Below are positions 49,011 through 64,000 of a stretch of DNA of 64,000 nt, in pieces. A program made the position numbers and the translations under genes. The DNA lies in contig DAOUEE010000158.1 in assembly GCA_034430695.1 (NCBI GenBank), positions 1 to 64,000 of the forward strand, in the 5' to 3' direction. Position 1 is the first letter of the stretch. Each line of letters opens with the position of its first letter. The DNA is from Anaerolineales bacterium. GTDB lineage: Bacteria; Chloroflexota; Anaerolineae; Anaerolineales; E44-bin32. Under the pieces are notes generated by a model. The model had not been told where the DNA came from. It saw nothing but the letters and a program-made list of their open reading frames with translations, and made no database searches.

Positions 49011-49547
49011 TCACAGATCCTCGTCGAATCTTGCGGGTACGGTCAATGCAAATTCCGGATTCGGCGTATGCGGCTCATCCATTTGCAGGCAGGGATTGCG
49101 GCCCGCATTCGCAGTAAATTCATCTCGCAGATGCGCTTTCACTGCCGCCTCAAGCGCATACGCCGTCGCCTCGATGTCTATCTCCTTCCCGTAGCCATGC
49201 CGGATGAATCCCCACAGGTATTTGGCATAGAACTTGACAGGCTTGTATCTTTCGTACTGTTCGACGTGTTTTAGTTCATGTGCGATCAGGGCCAAGCCTT
49301 TCGCATTATGCGGTTGGAACTGATCCGCATCGCAGAAGTGAATGGTTCTTCCAAGCGTGATCGCTTTTGTCTTCACTTTCGAAACTCGCTCGCTGCTCAA
49401 AAATGCAGCCAATCCACTCGCCAACTTGAGTTTCGTCCGGCGCACGACTCCGGGATCCGCATACCACTCACCCCGGGCCAGAAGGCGTTCCGCGCAATCC
49501 GGGATTCTCTCCGGGATTAATTCACTCATCGCATCCTCCCTCAACAC
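49011..49547 (-). CDS. Stand-alone DUF4157-like zincin (HExxH) domain protein
   Basis: 'LALIAHELKHVEQY' contains HELxH. The domain is 178 aa with no extension, resembling the DUF4157 'eCIS-associated' metallopeptidase-like domain. Confidence 0.55.
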   Translation of the reverse strand: MLREDAMSELIPERIPDCAERLLARGEWYADPGVVRRTKLKLASGLAAFLSSERVSKVKTKAITLGRTIHFCDADQFQPHNAKGLALIAHELKHVEQYERYKPVKFYAKYLWGFIRHGYGKEIDIEATAYALEAAVKAHLRDEFTANAGRNPCLQMDEPHTPNPEFALTVPARFDEDL

Positions 49548-49584: not shown

Positions 49585-50715
49585 TCATGGCAACGCGATC
49601 TGCGCGACGTCTCTTGCGGAGGTCAGGACCCAAACGGAACTCCCGGGCACTGCCCAGTCGATCATGCCATCCACCTCGCCCAGCAGTATGCCGTCCGTGA
49701 GTTCCAGCGAATCTCGATCGAGACGATAGTACACAAGCGGACTCGGTCCATCCATTTCCCTCGACGCCATTGTGGAGAGAGTCAGCAAATGCGATCCATC
49801 GATGTCCCAAATGACGCCGGTGAGTGCGATCGTGGCCCACCATTCATCCGCCAATGCTTCGTCCAGGGCCAGGTCGAAGGCGCCGCTTCCGTCTGCCATT
49901 GCCAGGATCAAACGTGGTTCGTCCGGTCCTCCCCAATGCGAGAGAATCAGTTCCCTGCCGTCGGGAGACCAGTAAGGTCGATCGGTTACGCTTCCCGTTC
50001 CGGAATTATCCACGTCGGCGATCAACCTTTCTTCCCCGGAAGCAACATCGACGACATAAAGTCCCGCTTCGATATCGAGCCCATATCCGGATTCTCGTGT
50101 AAAAGCAACAGCCCCTCCAGACGGCGCTATACTCCAGGTGAAGGTCACATCGTACGCTAAAATGCGATCGACGGCGTCAGTCGTACGCCAGTGCAGTTCA
50201 TACGTCCGATCGGTGGCCAGGATGTAGGCGATAGCAGCTCCATCCGGAGACCACAGCGCTTTTACGACGTCATCCCCAAGTAATACTTCCACGGTGCCGT
50301 TCTCGAGATCCAAAATCGATAAATCGCTGACGGACACCCCGGCCGGGCCGGCCCCTCGATCCGGGAAATCTCGCGCCATAAGGATCTGGTCCGTTTGCGG
50401 GTTGTATCCGTAATACTCGCCCATGCTTACCGGGAGATCAAGCGTAGATGCTTGTGCTTCTTCCAGCACAAAGACTTGGCCGCCCGATGACTGATAAAAA
50501 GCCCAGAGGATTTTAGAATGAAGTTGAGATGTGGGTGCAATAGACGTATCTTCCCATCGGGGTGTGTTCGGTACTGCTGCGCGTGTGGCAGTTGCGCTAT
50601 GAATTGGAAACTCGTTCTCCACTTTCGAAGCAACCGGGGCGACCGTGCAACACGCCGTGATCAGGACCAGGAAAAGGGCGGCGAGGCCGAACCACTTCTC
50701 ACACCCATCACTCAT
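49585..50715 (-). CDS. Secreted/lipoprotein beta-propeller protein (TolB/WD40-like)
   Basis: Signal peptide with 'LITACCTVA'. Repeated 'WSPDG..IAY', 'YWSPDGRELIL' and 'FTWSIAPSGGAVAF' blades. Confidence 0.55.
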   Translation of the reverse strand: MSDGCEKWFGLAALFLVLITACCTVAPVASKVENEFPIHSATATRAAVPNTPRWEDTSIAPTSQLHSKILWAFYQSSGGQVFVLEEAQASTLDLPVSMGEYYGYNPQTDQILMARDFPDRGAGPAGVSVSDLSILDLENGTVEVLLGDDVVKALWSPDGAAIAYILATDRTYELHWRTTDAVDRILAYDVTFTWSIAPSGGAVAFTRESGYGLDIEAGLYVVDVASGEERLIADVDNSGTGSVTDRPYWSPDGRELILSHWGGPDEPRLILAMADGSGAFDLALDEALADEWWATIALTGVIWDIDGSHLLTLSTMASREMDGPSPLVYYRLDRDSLELTDGILLGEVDGMIDWAVPGSSVWVLTSARDVAQIALP

Positions 50716-51702: not shown

Positions 51703-52086
51703 GGCAACACCTCCTCCATCGAATTCTGTATCTCACGAAAGACAGTGAAACATACTGCCTGTTTAATCTACACCACAATGGAAGAACAGTAAATTCCACG
51801 GGCTCAAATTAGATCGGATCCAAACGGTCTAGCCAGGAATGGTCCAGACCATTTTACACAAATCGCGAAGCAGAATATAATGGTGGTTCACTTGCGTCGC
51901 ATTAGAAACCATTGGAATGTGAAGTCGAGCACGTTTCCCGAAATGCCGTCAGGTGTTTTTTCATACCAGGACAGATGTTGAGGTGACTTTGCAAGCCAAA
52001 TGAAAGGTCTACTTTCTCACTTATGATGTACCCTTAGCTTAGATTCAGCGGTAATTCAGGAAGGCAAACGCTTTGGGAGAATCGAC

Positions 52087-53052
52087 TTGACGAATCAAGG
52101 TGCAGATACCAGGCATTTGCTCATCGTTGACGATGAGCATGAAATCTTGAAGGCCCTGACCAATTACCTGAGTAAACTATACGATGCGTATACGGTCGAT
52201 ACGGCAAATAGCGGCGCGGCTGCCCTTGAAAAGATCAAAAAAGGTTCATACGAGCTGATCATAACCGATTACATGATGCCGACCATGAACGGCCTGGAAT
52301 TGGCCAAGGCTGCTCGTGAAATCTCTCCGGATACGAAGGTAGTCCTTATTACAGCATACGGAAATAAGGAGTTGCGTTCGTCCGTCGAAGATTTGAATCT
52401 CGAGGGCTTCATCGATAAACCCTTCAGCATGGCACAGATTCGGGAGATCGTGGAAAAAGCAATTGGCTCGATGAACGGCGACGACCAACCCAACATGCAA
52501 GGTCTTAGCGAACCACTGCGGGACAAATTGAATAAATTGCAGGCCGATTCCGGAGCTTCATGCGTTTTACTGCTGAGCGCAAACGGCTACACGGTCGAAA
52601 CCGCAGGTGTTACGAGCGGTATGGACACTTCAAACATCAGTGCACTCGTGGCAGCGAATTTCGCAGCTTCGTCCGAATTGGCCAGAATCCTGAAGAGTAA
52701 TTCCGTTTTCAAATCCAGTTTCCATGAAGGGCCAGAATACAACATTTACGCTCACGATGTGGATGGCGACTTCCTCCTGGCGGTAATTTTCGGTTCGGAA
52801 ACCAAACCTGGTGCGGTATGGCACTACACCAAACAAACGGCCGTCGAATTGGCGCCATTGATCGCCGATCAGAAGGAAGCGGAAATCGATTCCGACAACC
52901 TGGCGGAAGCGATGAATGCCGAACTCGACAATTTGTTGGATGATGAGATCCTGGTGGACATCGGTACAGGAGAATTAATCACGTTCGAAGACGCCATGAA
53001 TGCCGGACTCGTTCCATCCGAGTTGAAAGAATCAAAGAAGGGCAAAATGTGA
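52087..53052 (+). CDS. Response-regulator receiver fused to Roadblock/LC7 (MglB-like) domain
   Basis: TTG start with GGGAGA RBS. REC 'LLIVDDEHEIL...LIITDYMMPTMNG...VVLITAYG'. The C-terminal 'CVLLLSANGYTVETAGV...FLLAVIFGSE' has a Roadblock pattern. Confidence 0.75.
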   Translation: MTNQGADTRHLLIVDDEHEILKALTNYLSKLYDAYTVDTANSGAAALEKIKKGSYELIITDYMMPTMNGLELAKAAREISPDTKVVLITAYGNKELRSSVEDLNLEGFIDKPFSMAQIREIVEKAIGSMNGDDQPNMQGLSEPLRDKLNKLQADSGASCVLLLSANGYTVETAGVTSGMDTSNISALVAANFAASSELARILKSNSVFKSSFHEGPEYNIYAHDVDGDFLLAVIFGSETKPGAVWHYTKQTAVELAPLIADQKEAEIDSDNLAEAMNAELDNLLDDEILVDIGTGELITFEDAMNAGLVPSELKESKKGKM

Positions 53053-53140
53053 CGTTTTCAAGGGATGAGGTTTGTGTGTAGCGTTTGAAGTGTTGGTGAG
53101 TTGACGTTATATTTCGGCTTATGATGGAGGAACTACCAAG

Positions 53141-53713
53141 ATGTATATTAACCAAAAGCTGGGCGAGTTGCACATCAAAATTGTATACTACGGCCCTGCT
53201 CGCAGTGGAAAAACGACAAACCTGCAATTCATCCACGGACACATCAACCCAAAAGCGCGTGGTGAATTGGTTTCTTTGAAAACGCGCGAAGATCGAACGA
53301 TTTTCTTTGATTTCATGCAATTAGAACTCGGGAAAATCAACGGCCTAAAACCTAAATTCAGCCTGTATACGGTGCCTGGGCAGGTGTATTACGAAGCAAG
53401 CCGAAAACTTGTCCTTCAGGGTTCCGATGGAGTCGTGTTCGTTGCCGACTCGCAGCGCGATCGTTTATCTGATAACATCAGCGATCTCAAGGCGCTGGAA
53501 CAGTACTTGATACAGCTGGGGACGCCGATGGATTCATTCCCGTGCGTCATTCAATTCAACAAGCAGGATCTACCCGACGTGATCGAGCCCGATGATCTAA
53601 AGACGCAGATGAATATCAACGGTGTTCCTTGTATGGGCTCGTCCGCGATCAAGGGCCATGGCGTATTCGATACTTTGAAAACCATCATAAATCTTGTGGT
53701 TAAACAACTATAA
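53141..53713 (+). CDS. mglA: MglA-like Ras-superfamily small GTPase
   Basis: P-loop GPARSGKTT, intrinsic Arg finger 'EDRTIFFDF', switch-II 'TVPGQVYY', G4 'NKQD'. It is collinear with M. xanthus MglA over its full length (190 aa). Confidence 0.85.
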   Translation: MYINQKLGELHIKIVYYGPARSGKTTNLQFIHGHINPKARGELVSLKTREDRTIFFDFMQLELGKINGLKPKFSLYTVPGQVYYEASRKLVLQGSDGVVFVADSQRDRLSDNISDLKALEQYLIQLGTPMDSFPCVIQFNKQDLPDVIEPDDLKTQMNINGVPCMGSSAIKGHGVFDTLKTIINLVVKQL

Positions 53714-53739
53714 ATCTTAGGAAACAAAGGCATTAACCT

Positions 53740-54450
53740 ATGGCAGTTCAGGGGAATCTTATTGACATCAGTCTATCCAGTCTGATTAGCATTAATTGCA
53801 ACGAGATGAATCAAGCACGCCTGCTTGTGAAACATCGGGATCAAGAAGGAACCTTGTTTTTCGATGAAGGGGACATCGTCCATATGACCCTGGGTTCACA
53901 AGAAGGAGAAGACGTGATCTTCGAACTTCTTACCTGGGAAGACGGAACGTTCGAATTAACGAGGGACATACGCGCACCAAAACGCAGCGTCGAGACCAAC
54001 TGGTCCCATTTGCTGTTGGAGGGACTGCGGCGCATCGACGAGCAAACCCTCATGAAAAGCGGTGACGATGACGATGCCAATCGCGAAAAACAGAAATCGG
54101 AACATGAAGCTGCCGAACGCATGGCCAAAGATTTCACGCGGATCAATGGCATCGAAGGTGCACTTGTTACTTCGAAATATGGTGATGTACTAGGTTTCGA
54201 GGCAATGAAAAATCCCAAAGCGACGGCGGCTCTCGCAGCTTTCGCAGGACGACGGGCAGAAGAATTGGGCATCCTGTTGAACGCCGGGGCGCTTCAGCAA
54301 ATCACCATGTCTGGCGATGGCTGGAGAATGATCGTCTTTCCGTCTGAAAAACACTTGACGGCATTATCCATGGATCCCAAAATTTCAGTGAGTGCTACAG
54401 CCAATGCATTACAAGCCACGAAGAGAAGGCATCGAAAGGAAAAAGTTTGA
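53740..54450 (+). CDS. DUF4388 + Roadblock/LC7 two-domain protein
   Basis: The N-terminal 'GNLIDISLSSLISI...GTLFFDEGDIVHMTLG...LTWEDGTFEL' is DUF4388-like. The C-terminal 'INGIEGALVTSKYGDVLGF...WRMIVFPSEKHLTALSMD' is Roadblock. Confidence 0.7.
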   Translation: MAVQGNLIDISLSSLISINCNEMNQARLLVKHRDQEGTLFFDEGDIVHMTLGSQEGEDVIFELLTWEDGTFELTRDIRAPKRSVETNWSHLLLEGLRRIDEQTLMKSGDDDDANREKQKSEHEAAERMAKDFTRINGIEGALVTSKYGDVLGFEAMKNPKATAALAAFAGRRAEELGILLNAGALQQITMSGDGWRMIVFPSEKHLTALSMDPKISVSATANALQATKRRHRKEKV

Positions 54451-54542
54451 TGCATTGAGGACAGACCCGGAAATTTCTATTCGAGCGATCGTCGAAAACG
54501 GAATGCGTTTCGACAAAGATTGGCTCTCATAGGAGAATTGAG

Positions 54543-55553
54543 ATGTTATTACCAAAGGGAAAACCGATCTACGAAAATCTGAACACATCATTTACGAGTT
54601 TCGGCAAGTTGCTGCTGGATCTCAAGTCCAATGGCTTCACCGGATACGTCTACATCAGTTTCTGGGACTACGAAGCCGCTTTGTTCATGGACAACGGCAA
54701 CATCATCAACGCCATCGAAGAAACCGGCGGAAACAGGAAAACCAGCCACGATGCCGTCGGTAGCATCACTGCAAAAGTCAATCAGAAGGATGGTTCCATC
54801 AGCGTGTACAGCCTCTCACCAAAGAAGGTAACCATGCTCGCCAGTACAGTGAGAAGCGAAGTGCGCTACAAGGACCTCAACACTGATTTCACCAGCCTCG
54901 AAAAACTTATTGCAAAACTGAAGAGCGAGGGGCACACCGGTTACATCGAGGTCAGGATGACGGGTGGTGATGGTATAGCCATTGTCTTCCTCGAGAACGG
55001 TGAAGTCGTCGAGAGCATCCTCTCGATGCAGGATGAGGCGATATCCGGTGATGCGATCTTGCCTCACATTATCGAAAACGCTTCGACATTGGGCGCAGAT
55101 TTCAACGTGTACAACGCCGCCATTGAAGCCTCATTCGCCGAAAGTGAGGAAATCGAAGCCGGCTTCGACCTGCCGCGATTGCTGGCCGTGTGGGGCGAAA
55201 CGATAGGTGCGATCGAAAGAATGGCGGACAGCACAATCGGTAGAGGACAATTCCTCGAAGCCTTCAAATATGTCATGATCGAGAAGGCCAATGAATACCC
55301 GTTTCTGGATCCTTTTGCCGGCTTGTTTCAATACAAGGACGGCAGAATCCAATACAGCGGAGATGCGAAGAACCTGAGCAAAGGTCTCAGTGATTGTCTG
55401 AGTACGACAATCGAGCAGCTGGCCTCCCAACCGGCAGCCGCCGATCTGGAACACAGAATCCAGACCGAAATGAAGGCGGTCAAGGACAAATACGACGACA
55501 CGATCAAGCGCTTGGGCTTGGGGCCATTCATCCTTGGTTTCACGGCCGATTAA
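54543..55553 (+). CDS. Protein with two tandem DUF4388-like repeats and helical C-terminal region
   Basis: Internal repeat 'LNTSFTSFGKLLLDLKSNGFTGYVYISF...NGNIINAIE' versus 'LNTDFTSLEKLIAKLKSEGHTGYIEVRM...NGEVVESIL'. Confidence 0.55.
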   Translation: MLLPKGKPIYENLNTSFTSFGKLLLDLKSNGFTGYVYISFWDYEAALFMDNGNIINAIEETGGNRKTSHDAVGSITAKVNQKDGSISVYSLSPKKVTMLASTVRSEVRYKDLNTDFTSLEKLIAKLKSEGHTGYIEVRMTGGDGIAIVFLENGEVVESILSMQDEAISGDAILPHIIENASTLGADFNVYNAAIEASFAESEEIEAGFDLPRLLAVWGETIGAIERMADSTIGRGQFLEAFKYVMIEKANEYPFLDPFAGLFQYKDGRIQYSGDAKNLSKGLSDCLSTTIEQLASQPAAADLEHRIQTEMKAVKDKYDDTIKRLGLGPFILGFTAD

Positions 55554-55562
55554 GAGCAAATC

Positions 55563-56000
55563 ATGGACCAAGTACTCGCAGAAATCAACGCGTTGGACGG
55601 TGTACTCGGATCGTTCATCTGCGATAATCGCGGCAACGTGATCGTGAATGCTGTTCCCGCAAATCTGAACATCGCTGTGCTGCGGGGAATCAGCCGTCAA
55701 GTGACGCAAGCAATCGCTGCCAGGATACAAAACGGCATCCAAGAAATTGACCTAACCTATGAAGGAATCCGGGTGCTGATTCGCGCCCTCAACCAGGCCG
55801 CACTCGTGGTAATCTGCGAATCGAATGTGGACATCGCCCTTCTTCGACTGACATTGAATGTCAGCTTATCCAAGCCGGAATTCGGATCACAGCTTACCAA
55901 CATAGCACCCAAGGAACAGGTTATCCGGATCGTGCAGGAAGTCGATGTCGATGAAATATCCTGGCGCCTATATCGATCCATTAATGAGGGAGTCATGTGA
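55563..56000 (+). CDS. Roadblock/LC7 (MglB-like) domain protein
   Basis: 'INALDGVLGSFICDNRGNVIV...ALVVICESNVDIALLRL' is the classic Roadblock pattern. 145 aa. Confidence 0.7.
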   Translation: MDQVLAEINALDGVLGSFICDNRGNVIVNAVPANLNIAVLRGISRQVTQAIAARIQNGIQEIDLTYEGIRVLIRALNQAALVVICESNVDIALLRLTLNVSLSKPEFGSQLTNIAPKEQVIRIVQEVDVDEISWRLYRSINEGVM

Positions 56001-56788
56001 TGGCAGAAGCTTTACGGGGTGATCTACACCAATTATCACTCCCGAACATTATTCAGTTGTTAAAATCGGGGGGCCAGACGGGAAAAATTGATTTGACGGA
56101 CGGAAACAACACCGGCGAGATTTTCCTCGAGAACGGCAACATCGTCCACGCGATTGCCGGCGTTCTAATTGGGGAAGAAGCCTTCTATTCCCTTTTATCA
56201 TGGTTGCACGGAGATTTCAATTTCGTCAGTGGTATTGAAGCCCCAGAGGAAACGATTTCAACCTCCACAGAGCTGCTCCTCGCCGAGGGAGAAAAACGCA
56301 TCCAGGGATGGTCAGAAATCAAAAACGTAATACCTTCGATGCAGGCGATTTTCAATCTTGCCGAAGGAACAACGGGAGCGATCAACCTCGATCCGAACGA
56401 ATGGAAAGTCCTTGCGCAGGTAAATGGCGTTCGCACGATCAACGATATCGCCGCATCTCTCGGATGGGATGAATTCGAAGCCGCAAGCGTCCTGGCCGCT
56501 CTCGTAAAGACGGGGCTGCTTGAAATAGTTGAAGAATCCAAGTCACCTCCCGTCACGGCCATCGACAACGAGTTTTTCGATCGGCTCAATGATGAATTTA
56601 TTGAGGTAATCGGTCCTGTTGGGCCGGTGATCATCGACGAAAAGATCGCTTCGTTGAATGAAACCAGAGAGTCTTTCCCGCGCAACAAAGTCGCTGACCT
56701 GGTGGAACAAGTAAGTACGGAAATTGAAGACACGGATCAACGCATGCATTTCCAACAGATCATGTTGGATCTGTTGCGAGGAATCTAG
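55997..56788 (+). CDS. DUF4388 domain protein
   Basis: 'LRGDLHQLSLPNIIQLLKSGGQTGKIDLTDGNNTGEIFLENGNIVHAIAG...EEAFYSLLSWLHGDFNF' is a near-consensus DUF4388. ATGTGATG overlap with the upstream gene. Confidence 0.75.
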   Translation: MMAEALRGDLHQLSLPNIIQLLKSGGQTGKIDLTDGNNTGEIFLENGNIVHAIAGVLIGEEAFYSLLSWLHGDFNFVSGIEAPEETISTSTELLLAEGEKRIQGWSEIKNVIPSMQAIFNLAEGTTGAINLDPNEWKVLAQVNGVRTINDIAASLGWDEFEAASVLAALVKTGLLEIVEESKSPPVTAIDNEFFDRLNDEFIEVIGPVGPVIIDEKIASLNETRESFPRNKVADLVEQVSTEIEDTDQRMHFQQIMLDLLRGI

Positions 56789-56872
56789 CCCGGCGATGAA
56801 GGAGTACTTACCACTGTAGCCATCTGCGGTTTGCCGGATTTTGCGATGACGAGTAAGGAGATCTAAACAAAG

Positions 56873-57655
56873 ATGAGATTGACCATCGGTAGAAAATTAG
56901 GACTTGGCTTCGGAATTCCATTGGTCCTGTTGGCTTTGATCGGGATTGCTGTTTTCATCGGATTCAACACGCTTACCAACGCAGCGCGAGATTCAATCGC
57001 AGCTCAGCAAACGATTGAATTCATGGAAAGAGGCATGAAGCTCCTGCTGACGGAACGTATCTTGTTGAGCCATCAATTCGCAACCGGTGAGGAAACAACG
57101 GCGGCTGAATCTCGAAACGACTACATGCAGGAATGGGCGCTCGTCGTAGAAAATACAAGCACTCGATATTCGGATCTAGTGATGGAAATCCAACGAGCGG
57201 TCACGATATATCACCAATATCTAGATAGGGCACAATCAACCTACGAGACCAATCCAAATGACGCCCCCGACGCGTTACGCGAACTGGATGAAGCCGATAT
57301 ATTCTTCATTCAAATTGTACGACCTACCATGGACGATTTACTTTCCACTGCCGTTACAGAAAAATCACAACTCGTCGATGTCCTTGAAAATCAAATTATC
57401 GGCATTACGAGAATCGCGCTCCTCGTCGTCGTCATTGGAATCATTATTTCTGTATTCAGCGCGCTCACAATCCGGCGTGGCCTTACGAACGCGGCCTTGT
57501 ATCTGAGCTCTGCAGCCGAGAGCATCAGCCGCGGCGATTTGGACACTCCCATTATCGCTGAGACTGGTGACGAGATGGAAGATCTTGCCCGCTCGATTGA
57601 GCGCATGAGGGTCAGTCTGAAAGCTGCGATCGAACGATTGCGGAGAAGAACATAA
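56873..57655 (+). CDS. Membrane sensor: TM - four-helix-bundle extracytoplasmic domain - TM - HAMP, no output domain
   Basis: TM1 'LGFGIPLVLLALIGIAVFIGF', TM2 'ITRIALLVVVIGIIISVFSALTI'. The HAMP-like 'RRGLTNAALYLSSAAESISRGDLDTPIIAETGDEMEDLARSIERMRVSL' is followed by the stop. Confidence 0.65.
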   Translation: MRLTIGRKLGLGFGIPLVLLALIGIAVFIGFNTLTNAARDSIAAQQTIEFMERGMKLLLTERILLSHQFATGEETTAAESRNDYMQEWALVVENTSTRYSDLVMEIQRAVTIYHQYLDRAQSTYETNPNDAPDALRELDEADIFFIQIVRPTMDDLLSTAVTEKSQLVDVLENQIIGITRIALLVVVIGIIISVFSALTIRRGLTNAALYLSSAAESISRGDLDTPIIAETGDEMEDLARSIERMRVSLKAAIERLRRRT

Positions 57656-57835
57656 CCATGTGTTACAAGCAAGTTTGTCGGGAAATCAACACCACCCTTC
57701 ACATACCTGACGATGGGACGAGCTTTGAACTCACCCAAAATCCGTCGTTCCAGCGTAAATTCGGCGGGACTTCCAACAACGTCTGCATGATTTCGGACTT
57801 GAAAGTCAACGCCAACCAATTTCGGGAGGTACCCA

Positions 57836-58327
57836 ATGCCAGATAAAGTGGTAATACCCCCAGCTCTGATGACGAAGATCATCAAGATCATGTCGCAATT
57901 GCTGGAGAAAACTCAAGCATGCTGTGTCTTGCTTGCGGACATCAGCGGTCAGCTGATCTGCCAACAAGGGTTTACCAAGACCTTTGATCCGGTCATCTTG
58001 TCTGCTTTAACCGCCAGCAACATGGCTGCAACGGCGGAGATCGCCCGCCAGATCGGTGAGGAAAATCCATTCAAACTCATGTTCCACGAAGGGGACGATC
58101 AGAATATCTACCTTTCGAACGTTGCCGGCAGTTTCCTGCTCGTTGTCCTGTTCAGCACGAAAGTCCAGATCGGTCTTGTACGCCTATTCACCGGGCAGGC
58201 CGTGAAGAACCTCATTCCACTTGCCGCGGAGTTCGAACGCGTACAAAAGGAACAGGGACGCATTGTCGATGATGAATTTGGTCAAGCATTGACCACAGAG
58301 ATTGAGAGTCTGTTTGGCGATAATTAA
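57836..58327 (+). CDS. Roadblock/LC7 domain protein
   Basis: 'ACCVLLADISGQLICQQG...FLLVVLFSTKVQIGLV' has a Roadblock pattern. Confidence 0.65.
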   Translation: MPDKVVIPPALMTKIIKIMSQLLEKTQACCVLLADISGQLICQQGFTKTFDPVILSALTASNMAATAEIARQIGEENPFKLMFHEGDDQNIYLSNVAGSFLLVVLFSTKVQIGLVRLFTGQAVKNLIPLAAEFERVQKEQGRIVDDEFGQALTTEIESLFGDN

Positions 58328-58360
58328 CATTCGATACTTTGTGGCTGAAGGAAGGTTACG

Positions 58361-58753
58361 ATGAATTATCAACAAGTTGATTTGGCCACGTACCAACCGG
58401 TAACACTCGATGAACTTCTGCTCACCTTGCACGAGCAAGGTCAATTCGAGACTGCCGTCCTCGCGAGCGGTGAGGGATTGCCTATCGCGACCGTACCTGC
58501 GAACTTCGATACGGATAAAGCGGCAGCCATGATTGCGATGCTTAAAAGAGTGAGCAAGGAGGCACGTGATCAGTTTCCACTTGCAGAAATTGATGAATTT
58601 TCCATTCTTGATTCCAATCGGATGCGTTTGGTTTGCCGATATTTGAAAGCCGGCGGCGAGGAAATGATTCTTGCGGTCATTGCGCCGCCAGACCACAGCT
58701 ACCGCCGTATGACGAACCAGGCCATTAAACAAATCGTTGAATTCCTTTCTTGA
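58361..58753 (+). CDS. Roadblock/LC7 domain protein
   Basis: 'TAVLASGEGLPIATVPAN...MILAVIAPPD' has a Roadblock pattern. 130 aa. Confidence 0.65.
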   Translation: MNYQQVDLATYQPVTLDELLLTLHEQGQFETAVLASGEGLPIATVPANFDTDKAAAMIAMLKRVSKEARDQFPLAEIDEFSILDSNRMRLVCRYLKAGGEEMILAVIAPPDHSYRRMTNQAIKQIVEFLS

Positions 58754-58780
58754 TTTCGAAGGTTGATCGATCCGTGATTT

Positions 58781-60010
58781 GTGAAATGTATTCAGGTGAT
58801 GAACGGAACAGGCGGAAGTATCTCAGAAGTTGGTATCAAATCTCTCTCGACGATCGACCGATCGTGTGAAAGGAAAGAGTTCGAAGAATTCTTCCATGGT
58901 CAATTCGATCAATATTTCGCGCGTAGCGAGACGCGACAACAAGCCCTGCATTACGTCCAATCACTGCTCTTAGATTCAGATCCCAAATCCAACGGTAAGA
59001 AACCCCCTGCCTATAGGAAATTCTCGAAGTCCGCCCAGAGGTTGTTTTTCGGCGCGCAATGGGACGACGAAGCCGTACACCACCGTCTCCAGGATTTCAT
59101 CGTTGCAGAATTGGGCCATGAAAAAGGCGTATGCCTCATTGGTGTGACGTATTTCTCTAAAAAGGGAGAAAAAACGGTCGGAGTACAGTCGCAATTCAAT
59201 CGCAAACTCAAGAAGGACCAGAATTGTCAGGTTTGCCTGTTCCTGGGGTATGCCTCCCCGAAGGGTTGTACATTTCTCGACCGTCGTCTCTACCTTCCCG
59301 TGCAATGGACGGAAGACCAAAAGCGCAGAGCCGAAGCGAAAATCCCCGAGGACATCGAATATCGAAGCAAGTCCGATCTTGCCTTGGACATGCTTCAATC
59401 GGTCCATGCCATCGGAGCACCCATTCATTGGGTGGTTGGCGGCGAACCATTCTGCAGCGATACGAATTTACGCAACGTCATACAAGCGGCTGGCATGAAT
59501 TACATTCTCTCCGGCCGGGATACGGATTCGAGTTTCCGAAACTTGAATCACAAGCAAACAACGTCTGATCCGAACAACCAGGAAGATGAAGCCTGTGATT
59601 CTTCTATCTTCAAGATCGTAACCAATTGGAACGAGAAGAAATGGAAGCGCGTAATCGATCGTTCGAACGGAGATGAAATCTGTGTCTTCGATTGGGCTTC
59701 GGAGCGTGTTCTCGAGTTCCAGAACGAAACCGATTCCCAGGAAGTCTGGCTGTTGGCTCGCCGGCCGGTGAGTCAGCGATGCGAAACCGCGTATTTCATC
59801 TCCAACGCTTCACAGGACGCAACTCTTTCCAACCTCGCCGAGAAAATCAGCGGCTTGGGGATACTCGATCAGATGGTATCAGAAGCATGCACGAATTTTA
59901 TGATGGACGTGTACGGAGTGCGCCACTGGAACAGCTGGCATCGTCATATCACTCTATCGATGATCGCCCATGCCTGGTGGGTATACAAAGGGAAAAGGAC
60001 GTTACGATGA
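58781..60010 (+). mobile_element. IS701-family DDE transposase homolog with apparently substituted catalytic residues (possible domesticated/decayed transposase)
   Basis: Family blocks recalled from memory: 'F..F...F.R.E.R..A..Y..SLL', 'KKGEKTVGVQSQF...NCQVCLFLGYAS', 'LDRRLYLPVQWTED', 'WVVGGEPF', 'VRHWNSWHRHITLSMIAHA'. At the positions expected for D-D the sequence reads IGVTYF (not DETGF) and GGE (not GDE). It lies 27 nt after the upstream gene and has an ATGA overlap with the downstream gene. Confidence 0.65.
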
Positions 60011-60447
60011 ACCATCCTCCATTTTCGATAGAAGGATGTGATCAGACGCTGCAGGAAGAGCAGACCAATACGTGCGGACAAGGGAAAACCATCCTGTTTG
60101 TAGAAGACAATGACTTGATGCGAGAAATCGGCGCGCAGATATTGGAGGATTTGGGGTATCGAGTCATCTGCGCCGCGAACGGTCAAGAAGCGTTTGACAT
60201 CTTCAATGAGACAGAGCATATCGATTTGATATTCACCGACGTAGTGATGCCTGAGATCAGCGGTGCAGCTTTGCTCCAGAAAATTCGGGCAGCCGGTTCG
60301 CTCGTTAAAGCCGTTGCCGTGACGGGCCACGTCCTGGCGGAGGACCTGGATCGATTACGGGAAGTGGGTGTCACATCGATTATTCGAAAACCCTACGACG
60401 TCGACATCCTGGCTGATGCAGTCCGTGAAGCGTTGGAAAATGGGTAA
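60007..60447 (+). CDS. Stand-alone CheY-like response-regulator receiver
   Basis: 'TILFVEDNDLMREIG...DLIFTDVVMPEISG...AVAVTGHV' with Asp and Lys at the expected receiver positions. Confidence 0.8.
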   Translation: MNHPPFSIEGCDQTLQEEQTNTCGQGKTILFVEDNDLMREIGAQILEDLGYRVICAANGQEAFDIFNETEHIDLIFTDVVMPEISGAALLQKIRAAGSLVKAVAVTGHVLAEDLDRLREVGVTSIIRKPYDVDILADAVREALENG

Positions 60448-60474: not shown

Positions 60475-63400
60475 ATGGCGACTGAGAAGAGCAAGAAGGC
60501 ACATTTATCGCAAGCGGACGACACTCCAACTGCCCGTCCGACACTCGCCTTTCTTACCGCGACCATGGAAGATCACTTCAGCCTGGCCATGTGGACCGCG
60601 ATCGTCGAAGCCGCCCACGAGCGAAATGCAAACGTGATCAGTATCGCGGGTGGGAATTTGAATGACGCAGACGACGATGTCAGCGCAATGAGGTCAATCT
60701 ACCGGGCTGCGAATGAAGACTTTATCGATGCCATCATCATCTACGGATCGAGATTAGGAACCTACGTATCCCCAAAGACGTTTCGTGATTTTTGCGGTCA
60801 ATTCACATCCAAACCGTCTGTCAGCATCGGCCAGCAAGTCGAGGGGATCCCCGCTGTTCTTTCCGATAACTACGTCGGAATGCACCTTTTGGTCCGGCAT
60901 CTCATTCACGACCACGCATATCAACGTATTGCTTTCGTTCGGGGACCAGAAGGACAGATCGAGGCAGAAACACGATTCCAAGCTTATAAAGACGCGCTCA
61001 TTGAATCCGGCCTTGATATCGACCCCGGTTTGATTTCAGAACCTGGTATATGGGAGTCTATATCCGGCGAGGAGGCCGTTCGATCGTTCGTCGACGAGCG
61101 GGATTTAGCTCTCGATGCAATCGTCTGCGCAAACGATACCATGGCCCTCGCAACGATGTGGGCTTTGAAAAACCGAGGCCTGGCTATTCCGGACGATGTT
61201 GCCGTCGTGGGATTCGACAGCCAGGCCATTGCGAAAGCGGCTACACCGCCCCTCTCTACGGTCCGGCAACAATTGAAAGAACAATGTCGGCATGCCGTCG
61301 ACATCGTGTTAACCCAATTGGCGGGCGGCGACGTCCCCGATCGGATCGAAATTCCCACAAAACTCTGCATCCGTCAATCGTGTGGCTGTACCTCGTCCGC
61401 GGTTGGACGCGCGATCACGAAAACAAATCTCGATAACGGCGGCAGGAAAATTTCGGACGCAAAACGGGAAGACATTCTTTCGGAGATCGCGCACATCGTT
61501 GATACGACAGTCGCAGGGTCGGACGCCAAGTGGAGTAATAGATTATTCGATACATTTCTCGCAGATATTGAAAATAATCTCTCGAATTCATTCCTGCGAG
61601 AACTCAAATCTTGTATCGAAGACACGATTTCCCTCGAGACTGAAATTAACGAATGGCAAAGAGTAGTATCGTTGCTTCGCCATTTTACGCGGAGTAAGTA
61701 TGCCGACGAGGCGACCACGGAGCGAATCGAGGAGCTGAGTAATCAAGCACGTGTGCTGATCGGCGATAAAGTCCAACAAATCGAAACGCATCAATCGCTG
61801 ATCTACGATCAACAATACGCCAACCTGCGAGACACGACCAGGGCATTATCGACGGCTCTCGAACTCGACGATTTGCTCGACACCCTCCATCGCAGTTTGC
61901 CCCGCTTTGGAATACGAAGTTGCTACCTATCTCTGTACGAAAAAAACCTTCCATCTATTGAGAGCGAAACAAAAATCGGTTCGTTTCCTTTAAAGATGAT
62001 TCTCGCCTTCGACGACAAAGGCATATTGCCGCTCGAGTCCGAAGCAGCAGACATTTCGACAAACATACTTCCACGGCGAAAAATTTCGACCATTTCCGGC
62101 AAATGGTCTTTCGTAGTCAAAGCACTTGAGCGTGCAGATGATCCACTGGGGATCGTTCTCTTTGAAGTCTATCCTCCGGACGGAAGATCCTGCGACATGC
62201 TGCAAGAACAAATCAGCAGCTCACTCGCCTACGCATTGCTTCTCCAGGAACGACAGCAAGAGCATGAAGTACTCCAACAAGCCTACACGGAAGCTGAGAA
62301 GCAGGCCAGGGAAAAGGAGATCGAGCTGGAGTTTGAGATCGTAGACCGTGAGCAGGCCCAACAAGCACTTCTGCGAGAGCAGCACCTGTTACGCATACTC
62401 ATGGATAACTCCCCGGACGCTATCTATTTCAAGGACAAGGAAAGTCGCTTTATTAAGGTCAACCAGTCGTTTGCCAAAATACACGGCAAAGAAACCTCAG
62501 ACGATCTTCTGGGATTATCCGATTTCGATCTGTTTACCGAGGAACACGCGAGCGAAGCATTCGAAGACGAGATGCGCGTACTCAAGACAGGCGAACCGAT
62601 TGTCGGCAAAGTAGAGAAGGAGACTTGGCCAGACGGCCACGAAACCTGGGTCTCGACGACCAAATTGCCCATGCGGGATGATAAGGGGAACATAACGGGG
62701 ACCTTCGGTATTTCCCGAGATATAACCGAATCCAAACTAGTAGAGCAGGAACTTCGTCGCCATGCCGCCCATCTCGAGGCGATCAACACCATCATAAGCT
62801 CTACTTCGACAGCCGTCGATTTTCAAGATCTGCTGAAAATTTCCCTAGATTTATCTCTCTACGCGGTTGAAATGAATATGGGATTCATCTGGCTTCCGCC
62901 TCACACCGTATCTCGAAAATTGCTGCCGCCAGAGAACGAATTCCCTCACTACGATTTCGATCCCGAAAGTGCCGAACTACCGGAGATTCTCGTTGTCGAT
63001 GATTGGCAAAAAGTGCCGCAAGAAGATTTGCGTTTTCGTTTCTACGAGACATATCTCAAACCGCATGGCGTTCGGGCCTCGATCACAGTTCCGATTAAAG
63101 CCGAGGAAGGGAATCGACTCGGCGGGTTATGTATCGCTTCTCCCCAGGCATTCAAATGGACCACAGAAGAGTCTACACTTTTAGAAGCGGTCGGCTACCA
63201 GATTGGAATTGCAGCCGAGCGGCTGCGGCTGGTCGATCAGATTCGCGAACAGATGCAGCAGGTGCAGCAAATCACGGATACCGTCCCGGATGGTGTTCTC
63301 CTGCTTGATTCGAGCCATCGCGTCATTCTCGTAAATCCGGCAGGAACTCGAGATTTGCATTCGCTGGCGAAAGCTTCTGTTGGGGACGAGATTTCCCATC

Positions 63401-63999
63401 TCGGTGGTTGTTCCATTGCCGACATTCTACAAACCGACACCGATGTCCCCTGGCATGAAGTTCTTGCAAACAATCGGATTTTCGAGATCGTTGCACGACC
63501 CATCGACACCTACGGGTCTTCTGAGAGTTGGGTGATCGTGATCCGGGATGTGACCCAAGAACGGGAGACGCAGCGCCAGGTTCAGCAACAGGAACGGCTT
63601 GCAGCGGTCGGTCAACTCGCCGGCGGAATCGCCCATGACTTCAATAATCTGCTCACGACCATCATGCTCTATGCTCAAATGCCATTACGCAAACAACAGC
63701 TTCCCGAGGAGCTGAAAAAGCCCCTCGAGACGATTCTCAGCGAGTCACGCAAGGCAGCGAGTTTGGTTCAGCAGATCCTCGATTTCAGCCGGCACGCCCC
63801 GATCGAACGACACCCCATAGATCTCGGACCGTTCGTGAAAGAAGCCGTGCGAGTCCTGCAACGGACGATCCCCGAAAATATCTCCTTGTATATCGAGATC
63901 GACCCGAATGAGTACCTCGTCGAAGCCGATCCGACCCGCATTCAACAGGTGTTGATGAACCTGGTTGTGAATGCACGTGACGCCATGCCGGAAGGTGGA
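60475..63999 (+). CDS. Large multi-domain sensor histidine kinase, 3'-truncated by window end: PBP1 (LacI-type sugar-binding fold, no HTH) - GAF/PAS - PAS - GAF - PAS - HisKA - HATPase(start)
   Basis: My own frame-1 translation from ATG 60475 has no stop through nt 63999. It is absent from the ORF track, presumably because no stop falls in the window. PBP1 block 'AIVCANDTMALATMWALKNRGLAIPDDVAVVGFD'. PAS 'LRILMDNSPDAIYFKDKESRFIKVNQSFAKIHG'. HisKA 'ERLAAVGQLAGGIAHDFNNLLTTI'. N-box 'VLMNLVVNARDAMPEGG'. Confidence 0.75.
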   Translation, partial: MATEKSKKAHLSQADDTPTARPTLAFLTATMEDHFSLAMWTAIVEAAHERNANVISIAGGNLNDADDDVSAMRSIYRAANEDFIDAIIIYGSRLGTYVSPKTFRDFCGQFTSKPSVSIGQQVEGIPAVLSDNYVGMHLLVRHLIHDHAYQRIAFVRGPEGQIEAETRFQAYKDALIESGLDIDPGLISEPGIWESISGEEAVRSFVDERDLALDAIVCANDTMALATMWALKNRGLAIPDDVAVVGFDSQAIAKAATPPLSTVRQQLKEQCRHAVDIVLTQLAGGDVPDRIEIPTKLCIRQSCGCTSSAVGRAITKTNLDNGGRKISDAKREDILSEIAHIVDTTVAGSDAKWSNRLFDTFLADIENNLSNSFLRELKSCIEDTISLETEINEWQRVVSLLRHFTRSKYADEATTERIEELSNQARVLIGDKVQQIETHQSLIYDQQYANLRDTTRALSTALELDDLLDTLHRSLPRFGIRSCYLSLYEKNLPSIESETKIGSFPLKMILAFDDKGILPLESEAADISTNILPRRKISTISGKWSFVVKALERADDPLGIVLFEVYPPDGRSCDMLQEQISSSLAYALLLQERQQEHEVLQQAYTEAEKQAREKEIELEFEIVDREQAQQALLREQHLLRILMDNSPDAIYFKDKESRFIKVNQSFAKIHGKETSDDLLGLSDFDLFTEEHASEAFEDEMRVLKTGEPIVGKVEKETWPDGHETWVSTTKLPMRDDKGNITGTFGISRDITESKLVEQELRRHAAHLEAINTIISSTSTAVDFQDLLKISLDLSLYAVEMNMGFIWLPPHTVSRKLLPPENEFPHYDFDPESAELPEILVVDDWQKVPQEDLRFRFYETYLKPHGVRASITVPIKAEEGNRLGGLCIASPQAFKWTTEESTLLEAVGYQIGIAAERLRLVDQIREQMQQVQQITDTVPDGVLLLDSSHRVILVNPAGTRDLHSLAKASVGDEISHLGGCSIADILQTDTDVPWHEVLANNRIFEIVARPIDTYGSSESWVIVIRDVTQERETQRQVQQQERLAAVGQLAGGIAHDFNNLLTTIMLYAQMPLRKQQLPEELKKPLETILSESRKAASLVQQILDFSRHAPIERHPIDLGPFVKEAVRVLQRTIPENISLYIEIDPNEYLVEADPTRIQQVLMNLVVNARDAMPEGG

Positions 64000-64000
64000 G

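Follow-up and report, generated by a model that had tools for sequence, protein, structure and literature searches.

A conserved gene cluster of MglA, Roadblock and PATAN proteins with a HAMP-only sensor in Anaerolineales

Signaling by the Ras-like GTPase MglA has been dissected almost only in Myxococcus, where its regulators are scattered in the genome and were found one by one. Here we describe a cluster of nine genes that includes a single mglA gene and lies at positions 52087-58753, on the forward strand, of a 64,000-nucleotide stretch from an Anaerolineales bacterium (Chloroflexota; GenBank assembly GCA_034430695.1, contig DAOUEE010000158.1, positions 1 to 64,000), called the window below. 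In Myxococcus, MglB is the GTPase-activating protein (GAP) of the system, MglC is a Roadblock scaffold between MglB and RomR, and the receivers FrzX and FrzZ exert effects on the module; how input systems act on this GTPase module is still described as unknown (PMC10329633). Proteins with PATAN domains have been connected to the same GTPase. PATAN-REC regulators, in which PATAN is joined to a receiver (REC), bind the pilus motor PilB1 in Synechocystis, and mglA and mglB regularly occur beside PATAN genes (bioRxiv 2021.06.11.447907). This co-location is attributed by later papers that quote it to Makarova et al. 2006, and the available portion of a survey of MglA gene neighborhoods describes it as occasional, in Group 1 and Group 5 (Wuichet & Sogaard-Andersen 2014, PMC4316618). 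PATAN proteins were also among the candidates considered in a study of regulators of the type IVa pilus (T4aP) in M. xanthus (PMC11580455).

The nine genes, numbered g1 to g9, occupy one strand with spacing of -4 to 180 bp, and the open reading frame (ORF) calls bear out the compact layout proposed in a first-pass annotation of the window, which was made from the nucleotide sequence alone. They encode the following proteins.

52087-53052, + strand: g1, receiver joined to an MglB-type Roadblock domain that has a C-terminal extension, 321 aa (Pfam, PDB match)
53141-53713, + strand: g2, MglA-family Ras-like GTPase, 190 aa (PDB sequence match, motifs)
53740-54450, + strand: g3, PATAN domain and divergent Roadblock domain, 236 aa (Pfam, hhalign)
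54543-55553, + strand: g4, tandem pair of PATAN-like alpha/beta domains followed by a helical C-terminal domain, 336 aa; family uncharacterized (Pfam, AlphaFold 2 (AF2))
55563-56000, + strand: g5, divergent stand-alone Roadblock/LC7-fold protein, 145 aa (fold criterion)
55997-56788, + strand: g6, PATAN domain and DUF8082 region (winged-helix-like, then a helical tail that is conserved), 262-263 aa; start overlapping the stop of g5
56873-57655, + strand: g7, transmembrane segment, periplasmic region of ~130 aa, second transmembrane segment and HAMP, with no output domain, 260 aa (Pfam, hydropathy)
57836-58327, + strand: g8, MglB orthologue with Roadblock domain and C-terminal helix region, 163 aa (Pfam, PDB match)
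58361-58753, + strand: g9, small divergent Roadblock protein, 130 aa (Pfam Robl_LC7, 29.5 bits)

Across two phyla, the nine-gene set is inherited together and evolves under purifying selection. The locus sequence is identical to part of the Anaerolineales metagenome-assembled genome (MAG) GCA_964546785.1 and to JGI metagenome contigs, and the closest genomes are all labelled Anaerolineales or Anaerolineaceae, which agrees with the earlier impression that the host is not a myxobacterium. Four sister species, with MglA proteins 91-94% identical to g2, have the same nine genes in the same order, and the pairwise ratio of nonsynonymous to synonymous divergence (dN/dS) is 0.02-0.19 for each gene, with dS near or above 1. 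The order is also kept in two metagenome contigs, L091 and L092 (related loci carry L numbers), where MglA is 71-73% identical and the other proteins 33-55%; L091 holds all nine genes and L092 ends within the seventh. No transposase, receiver, or kinase gene lies 3' of the cluster in L091, so the nine genes on their own make up the conserved unit. A permuted core is found in ~58 loci labelled Calditrichota or Calditrichia, where the order is stand-alone REC, PATAN-Roadblock (g3), g4 in some loci, g5-type Roadblock, a gene for the C-terminal part of g6, sensor-HAMP protein, MglB, and MglA; in one Calditrichia locus taken as representative, the REC gene directly follows a gene for a PAS histidine kinase. 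Among other Anaerolineae, L085 and L088 have the same core in an order that ends mglB-mglA, and simpler loci encode REC-MglB, MglB, MglA, a g9-type Roadblock protein, and a PATAN-Roadblock protein. In all versions inspected, the module has histidine kinase genes at its flanks. Because gene order is kept across species and phyla and dN/dS is this low, the arrangement goes far beyond chance and represents a real, old module. It places an MglA-type G-protein switch outside the myxobacteria, with a REC-Roadblock fusion, PATAN proteins, and kinases consistently nearby, as the first-pass annotation had supposed. Horizontal transfer between Calditrichota and Anaerolineae was considered and dropped, with MglA identity of 57-66% to other Anaerolineae and ~60% to Calditrichota giving no clear signal.

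The GTPase g2 matches M. xanthus MglA structures with E=4e-56 (48% identity over 188 aligned residues) and T. thermophilus MglA with E=7e-53, and Pfam classes it as an Arf/Ras-type GTPase. Alignment to M. xanthus MglA places the P-loop at G18PARSGKT25 and the guanine-specificity motif at N140KQD143. In register with chain 6hjh_A are the intrinsic arginine R52 (R53 in M. xanthus), within EDRTIFFDF, as well as T77 (T78 in M. xanthus; a threonine in place of the aspartate of DxxGQ) and the catalytic Q81 (Q82 in M. xanthus), both within YTVPGQ. Homologues number in the thousands, and some of those in Anaerolineae MAGs are named 'gliding-motility protein MglA' by NCBI. Candidate MglB partners, g8 and the C-terminal part of g1, are encoded in the same operon, and mglB is adjacent to mglA in related versions of the module. 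Judged from its sequence, g2 is a bona fide, catalytically complete MglA, and the earlier claim of a single MglA with all of the family's hallmarks holds.

Roadblock domains were assigned with the Pfam cut-off of 23 bits for Robl_LC7, and PATAN-related domains with cut-offs of 25 bits for DUF4388 (PF14332, called PatA_N or PATAN in present Pfam naming) and 22 bits for DUF2226. The cluster contains five Roadblock domains, plus two domains that are firmly PATAN and another two that are PATAN-like. The five Roadblock domains had been predicted correctly, including the fusion of one to a receiver in g1 and of another to DUF4388 in g3, as Pfam and hhalign comparisons indicate. The closest of them to MglB is g8 (Robl_LC7, 41 bits), which aligns with M. 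xanthus MglB chain 6izw_B with E=1.3e-18 over residues 9-161, reaching the C-terminal helix region, and with T. thermophilus MglB with E=1e-08. Its orthologue is directly 5' of mglA in Calditrichota, L085, and L088, and g8 is the presumed GAP of the MglA encoded here. The receiver protein g1 (Response_reg, 92 bits; Robl_LC7, 30 bits) has a C-terminal region of 188 aa that matches 6izw_B over chain residues 20-157 with E=3e-14; its receiver retains D15/D16, D61, T89, and K111, and its dN/dS is 0.065. These features identify g1 as a second MglB paralogue carried on an intact phospho-receiver.

Only g8 and the C-terminus of g1 are MglB-like in sequence. The remaining three Roadblock domains, in the C-terminus of g3 and in g5 and g9, are divergent Roadblock folds, each recognized by an alpha-beta-beta-alpha-beta-beta-beta-alpha topology or a PF03259 match, and they are more likely to be scaffolds than GAPs. 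The g3 C-terminus scores 16 bits for Robl_LC7, under the cut-off; hhalign relates its family to that of g9 at 97%, and the Calditrichia orthologue of g3 scores 66 bits for DUF4388 and 21 bits for Robl. PDB sequence searches with g9 and g3 gave no useful match. The g9 gene has a dN/dS of 0.03, and g9-like genes occur 3' of mglA in other Anaerolineae. The suggestion of a fivefold expanded layer of GAPs or guanine nucleotide exchange factors (GEFs) goes too far: the Roadblock layer is expanded, but its three divergent members do not resemble MglB in sequence.

Roadblock genes are also multiplied elsewhere in the class. In L085:13311-20066 and L087:15422-20576, from other Anaerolineae, several MglA paralogues lie within 7 kb, each with MglB-type and g9-type Roadblock genes. 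These regions also contain a PilZ-domain gene directly 5' of three consecutive Roadblock genes, which hints at c-di-GMP input to some such modules.

Four DUF4388 domains had been proposed for the cluster. Those at the N-termini of g3 (70.9 bits) and g6 (77.4 bits) are firm PATAN domains, but both of those in g4 are weakly PATAN-like: g4 scores 23.4 bits for DUF4388, just below the cut-off, and 28.1 bits for DUF2226 with no single stretch significant. Together with the low score of the g3 C-terminus, this is where the profile searches fell short of an otherwise confirmed set of Roadblock and DUF4388 assignments. Additional comparisons bear on this assignment. Its AF2 model (pLDDT 85.5) has two alpha/beta domains in tandem, followed by a helical domain; hhalign relates the two domains to each other at 88% and each of them to PATAN at 76-84%; the L023 orthologue scores 30.7 bits for DUF4388; and PF14332 is annotated on many g4 homologues. 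Structure comparison with the g4 model found no solved structure that resembles it, and no solved PATAN structure was found for comparison. An exhaustive search gave 1008 representatives of the g4 family at 50% clustering.

The C-terminal half of g6 belongs to DUF8082 (PF26309) by precomputed annotation and is encoded by a separate gene in Calditrichota. Its family gives weak but recurrent winged-helix matches, to DnaD_N in 19 of 38 members, HTH_47 in 18, and TrmB in 14, and also to MarR and SNF8. Identity with CvnC of the actinobacterial conservons was rejected, as DUF742 was found neither in any cluster protein nor in the 38 members of the g6 C-terminal family (E<=1). In the window, PATAN is combined with a Roadblock domain (g3), with the winged-helix-like region (g6), or with itself as a tandem pair (g4), and never with REC. 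The receiver changes partners between versions of the module, being fused to MglB in the window and to a g3-type PATAN protein in L085, and free in Calditrichota.

The sensor g7 was correctly described as a HAMP protein without an output domain. Hydropathy places its transmembrane segments at residues 7-38 and 170-204, Pfam detects HAMP (37 bits) and, weakly, TarH (16.7 bits), and the chain stops ten residues past HAMP. The periplasmic domain is probably a four-helix bundle. Among the sister species, HAMP and the tail are 93-98% identical, compared with 61-84% for the periplasmic part, and relative to L091 the same two portions are 70% and 24% identical. In the Calditrichia orthologue, sCache_3_2 replaces the helical bundle. 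This pattern of conservation is that of a sensor whose output face is fixed and whose periplasmic domain can be swapped. Pfam and NCBIfam searches found no HisKA, HATPase, or methyl-accepting chemotaxis protein (MCP) signaling domain in g7, which is neither a CvnA-type sensor nor an MCP. Because a kinase or MCP domain is lacking, its signal must pass by protein contact.

Features that flank the nine genes are the following.

51853-51881, + strand: candidate sigma-70-type promoter TTTACA-17-TATAAT, matching the consensus at 11/12 positions (consensus match only), in the 384-bp gap 5' of g1
58781-60010, + strand: g10, IS701-family DDE transposase gene, 409 aa (NCBIfam NF033540 transpos_IS701, 245.8 bits, cut-off 150)
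L005:15641-16879, L006:15637-16869, and L007:15634-16866: orthologues of g10
60007-60447, + strand: stand-alone receiver, 146 aa (Pfam Response_reg, 79 bits); its start overlaps the stop of g10
60475-64000, + strand: cytoplasmic hybrid histidine kinase with domain order PBP(LacI-type)-PAS-GAF-HisKA-HATPase-REC; runs past the end of the window

The total of sigma-70-type sites in the promoter-scan region shows no excess over the shuffled expectation. An Rfam search of the whole window gave no match and no riboswitch 5' of g1, and a scan inside the nine-gene cluster found no convincing intergenic terminator. The spacer between g7 and g8 (57656-57835) is unusually long, at 180 bp, and is kept in the sister species, with gaps of 10-30 bp in Calditrichota. 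It possibly contains an internal promoter or a regulatory RNA; it has no Rfam match, and the 62-codon ORF there is not conserved. Two small called ORFs (54404-54532 and 57658-57846) were rejected as genes because they show no conservation in the sister species.

The first-pass annotation placed the receiver and kinase immediately downstream of the cluster and overlooked g10, which intervenes. The transposase gene is separated from g9 by 27-45 bp and shares 4 bp with the next gene, the ATG of which is overlapped by the g10 stop. An inverted-repeat search around g10 found none flanking it. It is single-copy in the window, occurs at the same site in the four sister species with 70-83% identity, and has a dN/dS of about 0.1 at dS of 1.2-1.7. 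These properties differ from the terminal inverted repeats, multiple copies, and variable location expected of an insertion sequence (IS). Neither L091 nor the more distant versions of the module have the gene. Therefore g10 is outside the conserved nine-gene unit. It appears to be immobile and under selection, and is a candidate domesticated transposase within a signaling operon. The GCA_964546785.1 assembly breaks in the g9-g10 spacer, with L001 ending ~32 bp past g9 and L090 beginning 68 bp before g10, but from g10 onward it runs through the receiver and kinase genes without a gap, whereas breaks at both ends would normally be expected for a multi-copy IS; strain variation or coverage may account for the break.

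The stand-alone receiver retains D78, T106, and K128. The kinase that follows had been given the domain order PBP1-GAF-PAS, but PAS precedes GAF. In L090 the full-length protein has 1417 aa and includes HATPase_c and Response_reg. Window positions 60475-64000 and L090:1745-11717 together encode three cytoplasmic hybrid kinases, paralogous and in tandem (1417, 1243, and about 1418 aa), each starting with a LacI-type PBP fold, which suggests intracellular sensing of small sugars or metabolites.

The G+C content across the cluster (52001-60000) is 0.47-0.50, compared with 0.52-0.57 in most of the window, and the GC skew reverses sign near 52 kb, at the point of a switch in coding strand. The low G+C might reflect foreign origin, or merely strand and codon effects. 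On the opposite strand, in the region just upstream of the cluster, a gene for an eCIS_core (DUF4157-type) domain protein and one for a 376-aa protein without a Pfam match lie side by side (49011-49547 and 49585-50715, both - strand) and appear to be unrelated to the module.

We favor, with somewhat better than even confidence, a reading in which the cluster is an operon-encoded MglA switch whose GAP and scaffold layer takes in His-Asp and membrane signals, with PATAN proteins as adaptors to a probably polar target. With g2 complete and an MglB orthologue always present, a GTPase/GAP cycle can be assumed with reasonable safety. MglA-GTP would be the 'on' state, and a g8 dimer would be its GAP, as in Myxococcus and Thermus. 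The REC fusions to MglB and PATAN, and the histidine kinases that flank the module, indicate that phosphorylation acts on the Roadblock/PATAN layer. The neighboring hybrid kinases would phosphorylate g1 at Asp61, and this could alter either the engagement of MglA by the MglB-like domain or its pairing with other Roadblock proteins, so that His-Asp signaling would set the strength or location of GAP activity. The g3 C-terminus, g5, and g9 would be MglC-like scaffolds that stack on MglB dimers, a role proposed by analogy with Myxococcus, in which free receivers (FrzX, FrzZ, and RomR) act on MglB/MglC and an MglC dimer has MglB dimers on one side and RomR on the other. At the membrane, g7 would tether the assembly, and its HAMP domain may relay the periplasmic signal directly to soluble Roadblock, PATAN, or winged-helix partners, taking the place of the kinase-bearing sensor of a conservon. 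PATAN domains would couple the switch to its target; given that PATAN-REC proteins bind PilB1 and that mglA and mglB have PATAN neighbors, the PATAN proteins are the best candidates for this link. MglA controls type IV pili in Myxococcus, Thermus, and Bdellovibrio, and by analogy the most likely output is control over where a type IV pilus or another polar surface machine is placed or over its activity. Extracellular sensing combined with a motility or polarity output is something that we only infer.

Several observations weigh against this reading. The g8 protein scores 59 bits against the Thermus-type MglB equivalog model NF052242 of NCBIfam, which has a cut-off of 200, and g1 gives no match to it, so both are MglB homologues rather than certified equivalogs. 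In the lineage of the window, g8 is not adjacent to mglA. Furthermore, g8 (E68) and g1 (about E197) both have glutamate at the site aligned with G68 of M. xanthus MglB, while the A64 position is conserved in the MglB-like domains of both; A64 and G68 are the two small interface residues whose mutation is reported to abolish MglA binding. The glutamate possibly reflects a co-evolved interface. The downstream kinases are putative cognate phosphate donors, and they are missing from L091, where all nine genes are present. Neither the 64-kb window nor the inspected flanks contain a pilus, gliding, or other effector gene, so the output step is drawn from analogy only. Most of the Anaerolineae isolates described are reported to be non-motile filaments.

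The same parts could be arranged as a conservon-like G-protein system, in which g7, the Roadblock proteins, and MglA act like CvnA, CvnB, and CvnD, the winged-helix-like half of g6 is a DNA-binding or GEF-like analogue of CvnC, and the output is gene expression or development rather than polarity. A HAMP sensor, a Roadblock protein, a small helical or winged-helix protein, and a GTPase do parallel the actinobacterial G protein systems (PMC13343842), but g7 lacks a kinase domain and DUF742 is missing both from the cluster and from the 38 relatives of the g6 C-terminus. Winged-helix matches recur in that family, and the available portion of the neighborhood survey describes Group 3 MglA loci with a REC-like/winged helix-turn-helix protein (Wuichet & Sogaard-Andersen, PMC4316618). 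Those matches are weak, with the best at 8.7e-06, and also fit the protein-binding SNF8 and DEP domains, and the links known for PATAN so far are with pilus motors and with the divisome rather than with DNA. The lack of motility genes nearby suits a conservon-like output, but the GTPase itself is much nearer to motility-type MglA. On balance we regard this arrangement as unlikely, though worth keeping in mind.

Absence of a linked motility gene is also compatible with a spatial regulator of division, septum, or filament organization, in which MglA and PATAN would mark poles or septa independently of motility. Anaerolineae typically grow as multicellular filaments, and the founding PATAN protein, PatA, is reported in the available portion of one study to interact with the divisome in Anabaena (PMC7380572). 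This possibility is quite unlikely in our estimation: all characterized MglA systems control motility or pili. Calditrichota, which have the same core, are to our knowledge not filamentous. Finally, the IS701-family transposase gene abutting the cluster and the lower G+C of the region could indicate a lineage-specific heap of decaying paralogues or transposon cargo with no integrated function. We consider this extremely improbable, and the conservation data exclude it: dN/dS is at most 0.19 in every gene, the order is kept at 33-71% protein identity in the transposase-free L091, the core is conserved in a second phylum, and the transposase gene lacks terminal repeats and is itself syntenic. 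A role in defense was also rejected, since the PADLOC library gave only generic REC and winged-helix similarities.

Returning to the operon-encoded MglA switch, its inputs could be wired in a more radical way. In a kinase-independent, receptor-coupled G-protein pathway, g7 would directly remodel the complex of Roadblock, PATAN, and winged-helix proteins that sets MglA's nucleotide state, with phosphorylation of REC-MglB as a second, converging input. We put this forward as a speculation with a minor share of our confidence. If true, it would be a bacterial counterpart of signaling from receptor through GAP or GEF to small GTPase, a third prokaryotic small-GTPase signaling architecture after those of the Myxococcus polarity module and of the actinobacterial conservons, and the first defined set of partners for PATAN, DUF2226-like, and DUF8082 domains.

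The cluster brings together, in one co-inherited operon of two little-studied phyla, what seems to be a complete MglA regulatory layer. It offers a compact and reconstitutable set of candidate partners, consisting of a GTPase, a GAP and a GAP paralogue gated by phosphorylation, together with Roadblock scaffolds, PATAN adaptors, and a membrane sensor, and it gives a functional context to PATAN/DUF4388, the DUF2226-like g4 family, and DUF8082. In the naturally occurring fusion of REC to MglB there is a direct hint of how a Roadblock GAP could come under the control of phosphorylation. The first-pass annotation considered this composition undescribed, and our literature search, with incomplete coverage, found no description of the fixed module or of a HAMP-only sensor, REC-MglB fusion, g4 family, or DUF8082 protein as its obligate partners. 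The gene order is common in relatives, but we found no paper that names or characterizes the module. The claim is too broad in another respect, as the co-location of MglA and MglB with PATAN and the multi-Roadblock, receiver-linked logic of Myxococcus were already known.

The module shares with the Myxococcus polarity module (MglA, MglB, MglC, RomR/RomX, RomY, and FrzX/FrzZ) the intrinsic arginine and glutamine of MglA, an MglB GAP, additional Roadblock scaffolds, and receiver input. In contrast to Myxococcus, the components here form one operon, an MglB paralogue carries the receiver by covalent fusion, the Roadblock domains number five instead of two, and PATAN proteins and a HAMP-only sensor are integral; by Pfam the cluster contains no RomR-type architecture, and it has no MCP, CheA, or CheW genes. 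The mglB-mglA pair of Thermus thermophilus matches in its MglB and MglA orthologues and in the position of mglB directly 5' of mglA in Calditrichota, L085, and L088. It is, however, a two-gene unit without a sensor, PATAN protein, or receiver, and in the window mglA has moved away from mglB to second position. Compared with the actinobacterial conservons or AGPS (CvnA-CvnD; Mfp system), g7 lacks the DHp and ATPase domains of CvnA, no DUF742 protein (CvnC) is present, and the GTPase is a motility-type MglA, whereas conservons lack PATAN domains and REC fusions. The cyanobacterial PatA-type proteins (PixG, PixE, LsiR, and PatA) similarly tie PATAN to receivers and to two-component or chemotaxis-like input, and L085 has a REC-PATAN fusion of its own, but in the window PATAN is never fused to REC and the system includes a GTPase. 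The gene association itself is that of the mglA/mglB-PATAN neighborhood surveys of 2006 and 2014, the available portions of which do not describe a fixed module of 7-9 genes with a HAMP-only sensor, the g4 family, a DUF8082 protein, and a REC-MglB fusion. The module is therefore an uncharacterized version of a known kind of system, with all of its parts drawn from known families.

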